Assembly (NCBI RefSeq): GCF_058153355.1
Contig: NZ_CM177019.1
DNA: 64,000 bases
Reading direction: 5' to 3' (one strand)
Below the pieces are notes generated by a model. That model searched no databases. It saw only the letters and a list, made by a program, of their open reading frames with translations, and was not told the DNA's origin. A program made the translations under genes and the position numbers. Shown here in pieces: positions 4,079 through 63,292 of this stretch (position 1 is the stretch's first letter; each line of letters begins with the position of its first letter).

Positions 4079-5056
4079 TTATGCCCGGTCAACGCTAAAG
4101 GCGATGACTTCAGCCAGTGTCTCCGCGCCCAGCGCCAACATCACCAGACGATCAACGCCTAATGCCACGCCGGAACAGTCAGGCATACCGACTTTCAAGG
4201 CTTCAATAAGATTCTGGTCAATGGGGTGCTGCGGCAAACCGCGCGCCGCGCGCTTACGGTTATCTTGTTCAAAACGTTGTTGCTGCTCACGGGCATCCGT
4301 CAATTCATGGAAACCATTCGCCAGCTCAATACCTTTATAATAAACCTCAAAGCGTTCAGCGACCCGATGATCTTCGGTACTGATTTGCGCCAGTGATGCC
4401 TGGCTGGCCGGAAAGTGGTACACAAAGGTCGGTTTTTCTTTGCCAATATTTGGCTCTACGCCAAAGGTAAACAGCAGTTGTAACAGCGTGTCGCGGTCTT
4501 CTTCGGTATCGGCAACGTTGCTCAAATCCAGTTTCGCTGCCACTTCCCGCAGTTGCGTTTTGTCGGCAGAGAGCGGGTCAATTTCCAGATAACGCAAGAA
4601 AGCTTGTTGATAAGAAAGACTTTCTGCTGCCGGGCAGTCCAGCACCTGTTGCAAGAGATCGTCCACCTCGTTCATCAACCGGTACATATCATAGTGCGGT
4701 CGATACCACTCCAGCATAGTGAATTCAGGGTTGTGATAACGCCCCATCTCTTCATTACGGAAGCTGCGACACAGCTGGAAAACCGGCCCACAACCGGCAA
4801 CCAGCAGGCGTTTCATATGGTATTCCGGGCTGGTCATTAACCAGAGATTCATCCCCTGCGAATGCCCGGGGCCAACGAAACGCGTCTCAAACGGGACCAA
4901 ATGAATATCGGTTACCGTCGCCTGGCTCATACAAGGCGTCTCCACCTCCAGCACTCCACGATCGGCAAAGAAACGACGGATCTCCGCCATAATCGCCGCG
5001 CGTTTTAATAAGTTAGGAATGGATGCGCTCGGCTGCCAGGATGCCGTTTCGCTCAT
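4079..5056 (-). CDS. epmA: EF-P lysine34 (R)-beta-lysine ligase EpmA (PoxA/YjeA), 325 aa
   Basis: [30 protein letters not shown]… class II LysRS-like catalytic core; ORF-track frame trimmed to the internal Met. Confidence 0.93.
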
Positions 5057-34423: not shown

Positions 34424-34498
34424 GTAAGCGTCTTATCAGGACCGTCTGGCAAATTCCCGATGCTTTGGACAAAGTATCCACCACTAAATTAATAGTGG

Positions 34499-34927
34499 GT
34501 GATAAAAATGTCAGATATACAAAAAAATGCCTCTCCGGGAAGGCCTAAAGGGTGCCTGAATTATCCTCCTGAATTCAAACAACGACTCATAGAAGCATCA
34601 TTCCAGCCAGGTGTTTCAATTTCCAGACTGGCCCTGGACAATGGTATTAATGCCAATCTGTTGTTCAAATGGCGTCAGAAATGGCGGCAGGGGAAGATAA
34701 AATTGCCATCATCAGAATCAGGCAGAGAATCTCAGTTAATTCCTGTCACTATTGATGCCCAACTCCCAACTGCTCCGGCTAATGAGCCACTGACCGCAAG
34801 ACCGTCAGTAACACCGGAAATACACAGCATCTCCTGTGAGATTACGTTCAGAAACGGCACCCTTCGGTTGAACGGGGCAGTGAATGAAAATCTGCTGTCC
34901 TTGCTTATACAGGAGCTGAGACGGTGA
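34499..34927 (+). CDS. tnpA: IS66-family accessory protein TnpA (OrfA)
   Basis: 142-aa ORF MIKMSDIQKNASPGRPKGCLNYPPEFKQRLIEASFQPGVSISRLALDNGINANLLFKWRQKWRQG… (HTH-like); the true start may be the Met at 34508. Confidence 0.85.
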   Translation: MIKMSDIQKNASPGRPKGCLNYPPEFKQRLIEASFQPGVSISRLALDNGINANLLFKWRQKWRQGKIKLPSSESGRESQLIPVTIDAQLPTAPANEPLTARPSVTPEIHSISCEITFRNGTLRLNGAVNENLLSLLIQELRR

Positions 34928-35271
34928 TATCTCTCCCTGCAGGTTCGCGTATCTGGCTGGTTGCAGGTATCACCGATATGCGAAATGGCTTTAACGGCCT
35001 GGCCTCAAAAGTTCAGAACGTCCTGAAGGATGACCCGTTCTCCGGGCATCTGTTCATCTTCCGCGGACGCCGGGGTGACCAGATAAAAGTGTTGTGGGCT
35101 GACAGTGACGGACTGTGCCTCTTCACCAGACGCCTGGAGCGGGGCCGCTTCGTCTGGCCGGTCACCCGTGACGGCAAGGTGCACCTTACTCCGGCCCAGT
35201 TATCCATGCTTCTTGAGGGCATCGACTGGAAACACCCGAAACGAACGGAACGCGCTGGCATCCGCATATAA
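34924..35271 (+). CDS. tnpB: IS66-family TnpB (OrfB)
   Basis: 115-aa ORF MISLPAGSRIWLVAGITDMRNGFNGLASKVQNVLKDDPFSGHLFIFRGRRGDQIKVLWADSDGLCLF…; GTG start overlapping tnpA stop by 4 bp. Confidence 0.85.
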   Translation: MISLPAGSRIWLVAGITDMRNGFNGLASKVQNVLKDDPFSGHLFIFRGRRGDQIKVLWADSDGLCLFTRRLERGRFVWPVTRDGKVHLTPAQLSMLLEGIDWKHPKRTERAGIRI

Positions 35272-35290
35272 CCCGTTGTAAAGTGAGGAT

Positions 35291-36862
35291 ATGGACACCT
35301 CACTTGCTCATGAGAATGCCCGCCTGCGGGCACTGTTGCAGACGCAACAGGACACCATCCGCCAGATGGCGAAATACAACCGCCTGCTCTCACAGCGGGT
35401 GGCGGCTTATGCTTCCGAAATCAACCGGCTGAAGGCGCTGGTTGCAAAACTGCAGCGCATGCAGTTCGGTAAAAGCTCAGAAAAACTTCGTGCAAAAACC
35501 GAACGGCAGATACAGGAAGCACAGGAGCGAATCAGCGCTCTTCAGGAAGAAATGGCGGAAACGCTGGGTGAGCAATATGACCCGGTACTGCCATCTCCCC
35601 TGCGCCAGTCTTCAGCCCGTAAACCGTTACCTGCCTCACTTCCCCGTGAAACCCGGGTCATCCGTCCGGAAGAGGAATGCTGCCCGGCCTGTGGTGGCGA
35701 ACTCAGTTCTCTGGGATGTGATGTGTCAGAGCAACTGGAGCTTATCAGCAGCGCCTTTAAGGTTATCGAAACACAACGTCCGAAACTGGCCTGTTGCCGG
35801 TGCGACCATATCGTGCAGGCTCCGGTGCCTTCAAAACCCATTGCACGCAGTTATGCCGGAGCGGGGCTTCTGGCCCATGTTGTCGCTGGAAAATATGCAG
35901 ACCATCTGCCGTTATACCGCCAGTCAGAAATATACCGTCGTCAGGGCGTGGAGCTGAGCCGTGCCACACTGGGGCGCTGGACAGGTGCTGTTGCTGAACT
36001 GCTGGAACCGCTGTATGACATCCTGCGCCAGTATGTGCTGATGCCCGGTAAAGTCCATGCCGATGATATCCCCGTTCCGGTCCAGGAGCCGGGCAGCGGT
36101 AAAACAAGGACTGCCCGGCTGTGGGTCTACGTTCGTGATGACCGTAACGCCGGTTCGGAAATGCCTCCGGCGGTCTGGTTCGCGTACAGCCCGGACCGGA
36201 AAGGTATCCATCCACAGAATCATCTGGCCGGTTACAGCGGAGTGCTTCAGGCCGATGCTTACGGTGGTTACCGGGCGTTGTACGAATCCGGCAGAATAAC
36301 GGAAGCCGCATGTATGGCTCATGCCCGGAGAAAAATCCACGATGTGCATGCAAGAGTGCCCACCGACATCACCACGGAAGCCCTGCAGCGTATCGGTGAA
36401 CTGTATGCCATCGAGGCAGAGGTCCGGGGCTGTTCAGCAGAACAGCGTCTGGCGGCAAGAAAAGCCAGAGCCGCGCCACTGATGCAGTCACTGTATGACT
36501 GGATACAGCAACAGATGAAAACACTGTCGCGTCACTCGGACACGGCAAAAGCGTTCGCATACCTGCTGAAACAGTGGGATGCACTGAACGTGTACTGCAG
36601 TAATGGCTGGGTGGAAATCGACAACAACATCGCAGAGAACGCCTTACGGGGAGTGGCCGTAGGCCGGAAAAACTGGCTCTTCGCGGGTTCTGACAGCGGT
36701 GGTGAACATGCTGCGGTGTTGTACTCGCTGATCGGCACATGCCGTCTGAACAATGTGGAGCCAGAAAAGTGGCTGCGTTACGTCATTGAACATATCCAGG
36801 ACTGGCCGGCAAACCGGGTACGCGATCTGTTGCCCTGGAAAGTTGATCTGAGCTCTCAGTAA
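35291..36862 (+). CDS. tnpC: IS66-family DDE transposase TnpC
   Basis: 523-aa ORF with N-terminal coiled-coil/leucine-zipper region, Cys pairs CPACGG…CCRCDH and a DDE-type core. Confidence 0.88.
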
Positions 36863-36892
36863 ATATCAATACGGTTCTGGCGAGCCGCTTAC

Positions 36893-44318: not shown

Positions 44319-44969
44319 ATGACCCGCACACTCAAGCCGTTAATTCTTAACACCGGCGCACTGGCGCTAACGTTAATCCTGATTTATACCGGCATTTCGG
44401 CCAATGACAAACTCACCTGGCTGATGGAAGTGACACCGGTGATTATTGTCGTGCCGCTACTGCTTGCCACCGCCAGACGTTACCCGTTAACGCCGCTGCT
44501 CTATACGCTCATTTTCTTTCATGCCATCATCCTGATGGTCGGCGGGCAATACACCTACGCGAAAGTCCCCGTTGGTTTTGAGGTGCAGGAATGGCTGGGG
44601 TTGAGCCGTAATCCGTATGACAAGCTGGGGCATTTTTTCCAGGGGCTGGTGCCTGCACTGGTGGCGCGAGAAATTCTCGTTCGCGGGATGTACGTGCACG
44701 GACGTAAAATGGTGGCGTTTCTGGTCTGCTGCGTGGCGCTGGCGATAAGCGCGATGTATGAATTAATCGAGTGGTGGGCAGCGCTGGCAATGGGTCAGGG
44801 AGCGGATGATTTTCTCGGCACCCAGGGCGACCAGTGGGACACACAATCCGATATGTTCTACGCGCTACTTGGTGCATTAACTACGGTGATATTCCTTGCT
44901 CGCTTTCATTGCCGCCAGCTACGGCGCTATGGCTTAATCACCAGAGCGCCGGAAGCGATTACCTCTTAA
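44319..44969 (+). CDS. yjdF: Inner membrane protein YjdF (DUF2238 family)
   Basis: 216-aa hydrophobic ORF MTRTLKPLILNTGALALTLILIYTG…; the 3' end abuts melA, so the C-terminus may be altered by the melB-removing event. Confidence 0.85.
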   Translation: MTRTLKPLILNTGALALTLILIYTGISANDKLTWLMEVTPVIIVVPLLLATARRYPLTPLLYTLIFFHAIILMVGGQYTYAKVPVGFEVQEWLGLSRNPYDKLGHFFQGLVPALVAREILVRGMYVHGRKMVAFLVCCVALAISAMYELIEWWAALAMGQGADDFLGTQGDQWDTQSDMFYALLGALTTVIFLARFHCRQLRRYGLITRAPEAITS

Positions 44970-46321
44970 CGGTGTAACCAGCCTGGCAGCCAGTCGCCGT
45001 GGGCGGCAATCAGGTCGTCAACAAGAGCATATATTTCGTCAATGCCCAGCACGGCGGCAGTATGCGGGTCCATCATCGCGGCGTGGTAAACACGGTCGCG
45101 ATTTTCTGTGAGAATGGCTTCCGTCAGCAGTGTCTGTACGTTGATATTGGTTTGCATCAGGGCGGCCAGATGCGAAGGTAGCGTACCGACTTTGGTCGGC
45201 TGAATGCCATTAGCATCAACCAGACAGGCCACTTCCACACAACATCCTTGTGGCAGGTTATCAATCAAACCATCGTTACGGACGTTGCCATAAATCACAC
45301 TCGGCTCGCCAGTCCAGATAGCGTTCATGATTGTGCTGGCATATTCCCGTGACGGTTTAATATCAATCCGGGAGGCGTTCTTATACTCCTCCAGCTCTTT
45401 ATGCCAGTTCGCCAGCTGCTCGACGCAGCGTTTCGGGTACTCATCCAGCGGTACTTTATAACGCTCAATCAAATCCTCACGACCTGGCTTAATAAACCAC
45501 GGTGTGTACTCAGCAAAATGTTCTGACGATTCCGTGACGAAGTAGCCCAGCTTTTTGAACATTTCGTAACGCACAATATTCTGGCAGCGAGTATTACCAT
45601 GAATATTTGGCTTCGGTGCCTGCCCTGCTTCATAAGCCGCCAGCAGTTCCGGGTAGAGATTCACGTAACTGCCGTCGGCGGTTTTGCGCTCCAGTTCCAG
45701 GTAAAACGCCATATGGTTGATACCCGCACAACGGTAACGCAGCGTAGCCGGGTCGATATTGAGGTCACGCGCCAGCTCTTCCGCCGTTCCCTGCACCGAA
45801 TGACACAGCCCTACCTGTTTGATATGCGGATAACGGGCATACATCGCCCAGGTATTCATCGCCATTGGGTTAACATAGTTGAGCATGGTGGCATCGGGGC
45901 AGACTTCCGTCATGTCCTCGCAAATTTGCCACAGGTGAGGAATGGTACGTAGCGCGCGCATAATACCGCCCGGCCCCAGCGTATCGGCAATGGTTTGTTC
46001 CAGACCGTGGCGCTTACAGACCTCGAAATCAGTCACCGTGCAAGGTTCATAACCGCCAATCTGAAATGCCACCACGACAAAATCGGCATCCTGTAAGGCT
46101 TCTTTCTGTTGGGTGTGGCAGGTGATTTTGCCGCTGGCCCCTGCTGAATCCATCAGCTTGCGCACCACAATATGCGACTCTTCCAGGCGGGTGGGATCAA
46201 TGTCCATCAGGGCAATATGCGCCGTTTTCAGCGCCTCGCGATGGAACACATCACCAAGAATATTTTTAACGAAAATCGTCGAACCAGCGCCGATAAATGT
46301 AATTTTGGGTGCAGACATCAT
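44966..46321 (-). CDS. melA: Alpha-galactosidase MelA (NAD/Mn-dependent GH4 family)
   Basis: 451-aa ORF MMSAPKITFIGAGSTIFVKNILGDVFHREAL… with Rossmann-type GxGS motif. Confidence 0.97.
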   Translation of the reverse strand: MMSAPKITFIGAGSTIFVKNILGDVFHREALKTAHIALMDIDPTRLEESHIVVRKLMDSAGASGKITCHTQQKEALQDADFVVVAFQIGGYEPCTVTDFEVCKRHGLEQTIADTLGPGGIMRALRTIPHLWQICEDMTEVCPDATMLNYVNPMAMNTWAMYARYPHIKQVGLCHSVQGTAEELARDLNIDPATLRYRCAGINHMAFYLELERKTADGSYVNLYPELLAAYEAGQAPKPNIHGNTRCQNIVRYEMFKKLGYFVTESSEHFAEYTPWFIKPGREDLIERYKVPLDEYPKRCVEQLANWHKELEEYKNASRIDIKPSREYASTIMNAIWTGEPSVIYGNVRNDGLIDNLPQGCCVEVACLVDANGIQPTKVGTLPSHLAALMQTNINVQTLLTEAILTENRDRVYHAAMMDPHTAAVLGIDEIYALVDDLIAAHGDWLPGWLHR

Positions 46322-46603
46322 GCAGATCTCCTGGCTTGCTTGAATAACTTCATCATGGCAGGCGAATCTGCAGAAAACCTCCGGCTTCCAGGTTGAGCAT
46401 TCCCATAAACTCAGATCCTGCGTGAAGTGTCAGTAAATCTGAGTTTATGGGAATAAATTACCTGAAAAGCAGAGTTTTCGGCCTCATGGTACTCGGATGA
46501 TCCCTTCGCCCCTCTGGCAAGAGGGCGAAAACCGTGCTCCCACTCGCAGTCATCCTCCCTCACTCCTGCCATAATTCTGATATTCCAGGAAAGAGAGTCA
46601 TCC

Positions 46604-47512
46604 ATGAATACAGATACGTTTATGTGCAGCAGCGACGAAAAACAGACCCGCAGCCCGCTGTCGCTGTATTCGGAATACCAGCGGATGGAGATTGAGTTTC
46701 GCGCACCGCATATCATGCCCACCAGCCACTGGCATGGTCAGGTCGAAGTGAATGTGCCTTTCGATGGCGATGTGGAATACCTGATCAACAATGAAAAAGT
46801 GAGTATCAATCAGGGACATATCACGCTGTTCTGGGCCTGTACACCGCACCAACTAACAGATACCGGAACCTGTCAGAGCATGGCGATTTTTAATCTGCCG
46901 ATGCATCTGTTTCTCTCCTGGCCGCTGGATAAAGACCTGATTAACCACGTCACTCACGGCATGGTGATCAAATCACTGGCGACACAGCAACTTAGCCCGT
47001 TTGAAGTGCGCCGCTGGCAGCAGGAATTGAACAGTCCGAACGAGCAAATTCGCCAGCTCGCCATTGATGAAATTGGCCTGATGCTCAAGCGATTTAGCCT
47101 CTCTGGCTGGGAACCGATTCTGGTCAATAAAACCTCGCGCACACACAAAAACAGCGTCTCGCGCCATGCGCAATTTTATGTCAGCCAGATGCTGGGCTTT
47201 ATTGCCGAAAACTATGATCAGGCGCTGACCATCAACGATGTGGCTGAGCACGTCAAACTTAACGCCAACTATGCAATGGGGATATTCCAGCGGGTCATGC
47301 AATTGACGATGAAACAGTACATTACTGCGATGCGCATCAACCACGTTCGTGCGTTACTGAGCGATACCGATAAAAGTATTCTCGATATTGCCCTGACGGC
47401 AGGCTTTCGTTCGAGTAGCCGTTTTTACAGCACGTTCGGCAAATATGTCGGCATGTCACCGCAACAATACCGCAAACTTAGCCAACAGCGCCGCCAGACG
47501 TTTCCCGGCTAA
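46604..47512 (+). CDS. melR: AraC-family melibiose operon activator MelR
   Basis: 302-aa ORF; C-terminal AraC-type HTH (…ILDIALTAGFRSSSRFYSTFGKYVGMSPQQYR…). Confidence 0.96.
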   Translation: MNTDTFMCSSDEKQTRSPLSLYSEYQRMEIEFRAPHIMPTSHWHGQVEVNVPFDGDVEYLINNEKVSINQGHITLFWACTPHQLTDTGTCQSMAIFNLPMHLFLSWPLDKDLINHVTHGMVIKSLATQQLSPFEVRRWQQELNSPNEQIRQLAIDEIGLMLKRFSLSGWEPILVNKTSRTHKNSVSRHAQFYVSQMLGFIAENYDQALTINDVAEHVKLNANYAMGIFQRVMQLTMKQYITAMRINHVRALLSDTDKSILDIALTAGFRSSSRFYSTFGKYVGMSPQQYRKLSQQRRQTFPG

Positions 47513-61865: not shown

Positions 61866-63170
<1,305 letters not shown>

Positions 63171-63200
63171 CATGCCTGCAATCTGGGAAACCGGGGTAGA

Positions 63201-63292
<92 letters not shown>

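Follow-up and report, generated by a model that had tools for sequence, protein, structure and literature searches.

A common natural melB-less allele of the Escherichia mel locus and its probable origin in an ancient deletion

The melB-less junction between yjdF and melA is an already known, common natural polymorphism that is ordinary for Escherichia coli, and its difference from K-12 is not in itself an anomaly, as the arrangement is normal for roughly a quarter of E. coli. We analyzed one example in a 64-kb stretch of DNA (here called the window), and we consider it highly likely, with a probability of roughly 0.9, that the mel locus of the window is a deletion allele of natural and ancient origin. 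Under this explanation, one deletion would have extended from within the melA-melB spacer, whose distal part it removed, through the whole of melB and the REP-containing melB-yjdF spacer into yjdF, which lost its final two codons, and a filler of ~23 nt would be all that was left. The yjdF reading frame would then run through the filler to the complement of the melA stop codon, which would give YjdF a tail longer by seven residues. The allele would have persisted in phylogroup B2 (including the species type strain), in the two clade I strains closest to the window, and in several other Escherichia lineages, while melA and melR would have stayed functional and under selection.

Layout of the locus and structure of the junction

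The window carries dcuB, fumB, yjdF, melA, melR, and adiA, in the reverse of the K-12 order, and melA is the sole, and hence the last, gene left in its mel operon. The features of the locus, in window coordinates, are as follows.

44319..44969, plus strand: yjdF, encoding a DUF2238 inner-membrane protein, in a long allele of 216 aa (651 nt) with its TAA stop at 44967-44969 (open reading frame [ORF] list and translation)
Last 7 to 8 codons of yjdF: RAPEAITS, read out of the deletion filler
44922..44951: GC-rich hairpin across the junction (repeat search and RNA folds)
44943..44965: junction filler of 23 nt (AGAGCGCCGGAAGCGATTACCTC), which replaces 1668 bp of K-12 (MG1655 alignment)
44966..44969: TTAA common to the convergent yjdF and melA ORFs, the melA stop being the complement of 44966-44968
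44966..46321, minus strand: melA, encoding an alpha-galactosidase (GH4), intact, 451 aa (ORF list and translation)
46322..46603: divergent regulatory region between melR and melA (five-sequence alignment)
46604..47512, plus strand: melR, encoding an AraC-family activator, intact, 302 aa (ORF list)

A preliminary description of this DNA had reported that melB is missing, that melA and yjdF end on overlapping stop codons, and that melR and melA look intact, and we can confirm each of these observations. A tblastn search of the 64-kb window with K-12 MelB found no homologue (best E = 1.4; nothing at 1e-10), and alignment with MG1655 shows the loss relative to K-12. The TTAA shared by the two stops at 44966-44969 was verified from the sequence and the ORF list. 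Both melR and melA are full-length ORFs, and their proteins differ from those of K-12 at one and two residues, respectively. Set against the K-12 melRAB-yjdF region (MG1655 b4118-b4121), the window thus shares the order and orientation dcuB-fumB-yjdF ... melA-melR-adiA and has nearly identical MelA and MelR proteins, but it has 23 nt where K-12 has 1668 bp (two spacers and melB) and a YjdF of 216 aa where K-12 has one of 209 aa.

The alignment with the MG1655 melAB-yjdF region that had been proposed as a check maps the deletion endpoints at 44942 and 44966. On the yjdF side, homology with MG1655 breaks at 44942, 6 nt before the end of K-12 yjdF, and it restarts at 44966, precisely at the melA stop. 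Between these breakpoints the 1668 bp of K-12 consist of the 102-bp melA-melB spacer, melB itself (1422 bp), the 138-bp melB-yjdF spacer, which contains REP sequences, and the final two codons of yjdF. The K-12 YjdF (209 aa, 630 nt) ends in ...LITG, immediately before the stop, whereas the window YjdF ends in ...LITRAPEAITS. Since the YjdF proteins of melB+ E. coli and of melB+ Citrobacter amalonaticus both end in ...LI(T/A)G, the short end is ancestral, and the earlier suspicion that the longer C terminus is a by-product of the deletion junction is borne out. For the purposes of annotation, the 216-aa YjdF is a junction artifact turned stable allele.

The melA-melB spacer is conserved among E. 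coli, Citrobacter, and Kluyvera, and the filler has AGAG...CGCCGGAA...GCG in common with it, in the same order; the filler is probably a degraded relic of this intergenic region. Across Escherichia species its first 12 nt are conserved and its last 11 to 12 nt drift. Comparison of the K-12 sites with the window junction turned up no convincing microhomology at the endpoints; the motif CCGGA(A)TAA, which occurs at both K-12 sites, was considered as a recombining repeat and rejected because deletion between its copies would not yield the observed junction. The origin of the filler is not, in our judgment, cleanly reconstructable, and a second small loss within the spacer hairpin would have to be assumed.

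A repeat search revealed that the junction lies within a GC-rich hairpin (arms 44922-44932 and 44941-44951; 11 bp, 8-nt loop) that forms between the original coding end of yjdF and the deletion filler. The hairpin folds on both strands (z-scores of -1.0 to -2.8), has a perfect stem in ATCC 11775, and is kept in B2, E. whittamii, and Escherichia sp. E1V33; its right arm, which spells the codons R-A-P-E, is conserved across species, and the next 12 nt vary freely. A consensus scan found no rho-independent terminator at the junction: the stem-loop is there, but no U tract follows it on either strand, and the convergent overlap leaves a terminator no room at this site. The junction region matched no Rfam family. 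The hairpin may act as a 3'-end structure stabilizing both convergent mRNAs.

Distribution of the junction and age of the deletion

Of 5426 complete E. coli genomes, 1267 gave a full-length match to the 2.1-kb region and 1264 to a 151-nt junction probe, and K-12 melB is present in 4136. The junction probe hit 5400 genomes in all, exactly the sum of 1264 and 4136, so that the junction set and the melB set are complementary, with ~23% of these genomes melB-less and ~76% melB+. The absence of melB is not special to this strain, as the same arrangement is found in 23% of complete E. coli genomes, the species type strain included. The countervailing possibility raised there, that typical E. coli have the same yjdF/melA arrangement, holds for this 23%, for the type strain, and for other Escherichia, but K-12 differs.

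Nine aligned E. coli examples share their endpoints and show small substitutions in the filler, and the window junction agrees base for base with those of eight E. coli carriers and three other Escherichia lineages, from which it differs by point substitutions only. A 651-nt yjdF with a 4-nt melA overlap is annotated in EC42405, MFDS1022581, EC65, AZ153, STEFF_1, CMZE087, O166:H15, and ATCC 11775, and it is present in every melB-less E. coli carrier that we fetched. The last of these strains, ATCC 11775 (= DSM 30083T), is the B2 type strain of the species. Phylogroup spread within E. coli is known here from named strains.

Previous genomic studies have pointed to B2 in this respect. Touchon et al. 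(2009) counted melB as one of the genes that no B2 strain has (PMC2617782), and Touchon et al. (2020) found B2 to be negatively associated with the degradation of melibiose (PMC7314097). The gene and the locus are the same as here, and the window junction matches that of B2, including ATCC 11775, filler substitutions aside; in their passages on melB and melibiose, these two papers give gene absence and do not describe the junction, its occurrence in other species, or selection on melA. Unlike the B2 strains of those studies, the closest relatives of the window belong to cryptic clade I (EC42405, 99.0 to 99.2%). Over the junction region the best match to the window is EC42405, at 99.0% identity, and over the surrounding ~25 kb EC42405 and MFDS1022581 are both about 99.2% identical to it. 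The melB-less allele is carried by both EC42405 and 2013C-4282, which belong to cryptic clade I (PMC10100065). The window probably comes from a lineage of the cryptic clade I type.

Beyond E. coli in the strict sense, a genome scan with YjdF recovered the same junction in Escherichia sp. E1V33, "E. coli" SCPM-O-B-8794, and E. whittamii. This survey was one scan of species-representative genomes and was not exhaustive, as it missed the representative of E. coli itself; its failure to return E. fergusonii, E. marmotae, and E. ruysiae is no evidence that the junction is absent from these species. A protein search with YjdF for further Escherichia species yielded E. coli and Citrobacter clusters only. 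One 231-aa YjdF match was considered as another species and proved to be an allele of E. coli lengthened by an internal duplication of 45 bp: in assembly GCA_903976085.1 (L073, 5001-5696), AISAMYELIEWWAAL is repeated in tandem within yjdF of a melB-less allele.

The E. albertii type strain (L014, 4625-4690) has the junction and the extended yjdF, followed by 34 nt of the melA 3' end and then by the last 11 nt of melR. We read this sequence as the product of a second deletion, superimposed on the first, that took the rest of melA, the promoter region, and nearly all of melR, in keeping with E. albertii being melibiose-negative as a rule (PMC9145129). The flanks of the carriers from other species diverge from the window by 4 to 9% in fumB and by 6 to 13% in yjdF. 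These values are species-typical, and together with the drift of the filler they indicate that the allele was inherited rather than recently transferred. As part of the explanation favored here, a single deletion event would very probably have preceded the split between E. albertii and E. coli, an age that rests mainly on E. albertii and E. whittamii.

Loss of melB also has a counterpart in Citrobacter. In C. youngae, Citrobacter sp. wls619, Cu233, and MGH106, melB is gone but melA and melR remain, and yjdF lies next to melA in convergent orientation, as in the window. The Citrobacter junction (L016 to L019, at about 4620-4690) differs, however, in that yjdF keeps its own stop and a spacer of ~60 bp with a REP-like hairpin remains, and the Citrobacter losses are therefore separate events. 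Judging from these junctions, loss of melB with retention of melA is recurrent. In C. werkmanii (L015) and C. amalonaticus AUH (L020), melR, melA, and melB are all absent from the site.

Low diversity of melB and alternative origins

A striking feature of the melB+ class is how little melB varies relative to its neighbors. In 4127 of the 4136 genomes that carry it, melB is at least 99% identical to that of K-12, a level that melA and fumB reach in only about 2920. K-12 and the divergent Escherichia sp. MOD1-EC7003 differ by 0.49% in melB and at 0 of 102 positions in the melA-melB spacer, whereas their flanks differ by 3.3% (melA), 4.0% (yjdF), and 3.4% (fumB), with sharp boundaries. Synonymous divergence gives the same picture: among five melB+ E. 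coli, dS is 0.023 for melB, 0.054 for melA, and 0.080 for yjdF, and against MOD1-EC7003 the respective values are 0.014, 0.117, and 0.162. We conclude from these comparisons that the melB segment moves by homologous recombination, and its low diversity relative to the flanks suggests that melB spread, or was regained, by this route. In the comparison of K-12 with MOD1-EC7003, the recombination tract is confined to melB and the melA-melB spacer (L013, 4769-6293, against L001, 5268-6791).

The flanks of melB+ and melB-less strains show no fixed differences except in the last ~6 nt of yjdF, where one melB-less strain has the melB+ type, which implies that recombination shuffles the two states. 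A deep haplotype split between the flanks of the two classes was considered and is absent beyond these ~6 nt. In the melB-less strain CMZE087 (about 1060-1090 of the L008 locus), the melB+ type TTGATAACC stands just before the junction and TTAG replaces TTAA, a pattern that indicates that the two classes of allele have recombined no more than a few bases from the indel.

These data raise the possibility, which we hold tentatively, that the melB-less junction is the original Escherichia state and that the melB of K-12 and most E. coli was brought back, or swept recently, by homologous recombination in the conserved flanking sequences of melA and yjdF. The reference arrangement would then be derived within E. 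coli, and the window allele would still have begun as a deletion. In an equally tentative extension, melB would be young, low in diversity, and still moving between lineages, for example into MOD1-EC7003, and melA and melR would have been kept for a role independent of MelB. The junction common to E. albertii, E. whittamii, and two other lineages speaks for such a history, as do the near uniformity of melB across the complete genomes, the sharply bounded MOD1-EC7003 tract, the lower dS of melB in both comparisons, and the scarcity of fixed flank differences. Within E. coli proper, however, melB falls short in diversity by a factor of only about two; adiA and melR are also low (dS of 0.042), so that regional variation could explain part of the deficit; no donor emerged from the comparisons; and the detailed comparison comprises only six melB+ genomes. 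An ancestral polymorphism kept through speciation, followed by a recent sweep of one melB+ haplotype, fits the data equally well.

Two further origins for the allele can be dismissed. A laboratory-made deletion of melB, be it a recombineering scar or a scarless design, has only the tidy junction with its stops overlapping on TTAA to recommend it and is extremely improbable, because the junction carries neither an FRT site nor any other scar, the filler agrees with the natural spacer, the endpoints ignore the boundaries of the melB ORF and sit inside yjdF and the melA-melB spacer, and the identical junction recurs in other species as well as in 1264 genomes of wild and clinical origin, with a filler that has diverged among them; the early suggestion that the junction might have been constructed is thereby set aside. 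A recent spontaneous or insertion sequence (IS)-mediated deletion private to this strain or clone, for which the two insertion sequences elsewhere in the window might argue as a sign of active mobile elements in the genome, is just as remote, since scans of sequence and repeats over 44700-45200 found no IS remnant, IS end, or target duplication at the junction, and since the junction is common to lineages whose flanks differ by up to 13%.

The elements themselves deserve a brief description. An IS66-family element (34424-36892; tnpA, 34499-34927; tnpB, 34924-35271; tnpC, 35291-36862) lies in the toxin gene ghoT of the type V ghoST toxin-antitoxin system, with an 8-bp target duplication relative to EC42405, and leaves ghoS apparently untouched. 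An IS110-family element (61949-63226; transposase, 62141-63121) lies between yjdM and yjdN and is absent from EC42405 and MFDS1022581. In single strains, mel genes are themselves interrupted, with melB split by ISEc35 in strain 3090 and melA by ISApl1 in strain SC516, which represent further recent routes to loss of mel function.

Retention of melA and melR without the permease

Between melB-less lineages, melA has a dN/dS of 0.010 to 0.015 at a dS of 0.28 to 0.45, and melR has a dN/dS of 0.017 to 0.042. In the control region between the two genes, the central inverted blocks, which we take to be candidate sites of MelR binding, are invariant among the window, K-12, ATCC 11775, Escherichia sp. 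E1V33, and E. whittamii. The low dN/dS values and the conserved control region imply that the alpha-galactosidase and its activator have long been kept by strong purifying selection in the absence of MelB.

The preliminary description had predicted a defect in melibiose uptake, but at least one carrier shows no corresponding defect in growth. The melB-less type strain DSM 30083T is melibiose-positive by Biolog, by API 20E, and on M9 (PMC4334874), and LacY transports melibiose (PMC6091025). A melibiose-negative phenotype thus does not follow from the absence of melB, because a type strain that has none grows on the sugar. The standard transport-null host, melA+ delta-melB delta-lacZY (PMC6091025), offers an instructive comparison. 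This host, DW2, has melA and no melB, like the natural carriers, but it is engineered and also devoid of lacY, which makes it transport-null, whereas natural carriers can keep lacY. Uptake of melibiose in carriers is likely to proceed via LacY. As lacY lies outside the window, we infer the uptake route in this particular strain. Alpha-galactosides would enter by another carrier, most plausibly LacY, and carriers of the allele would not need to be melibiose-negative; melibiose brought in via LacY or another carrier would then activate MelR, which would drive a monocistronic melA message. The textbook statement, cited in PMC11546641, that melibiose is fermented by 75% of E. coli invites the thought that the 23% of melB-less genomes account for the remainder, but the agreement is probably a coincidence, since the melB-less type strain is melibiose-positive.

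Several implications follow for the biology of this locus. Whether a strain has melB should not be taken as a direct indicator of its melibiose phenotype. E. albertii would represent a second step of decay on a deletion old enough to be common to Escherichia species. The low diversity of melB may be a new result, and it is possibly a small case of a gene-specific sweep or regain. The long selection on melA and melR without their cognate permease, finally, argues for an alpha-galactosidase that is fed by other carriers.
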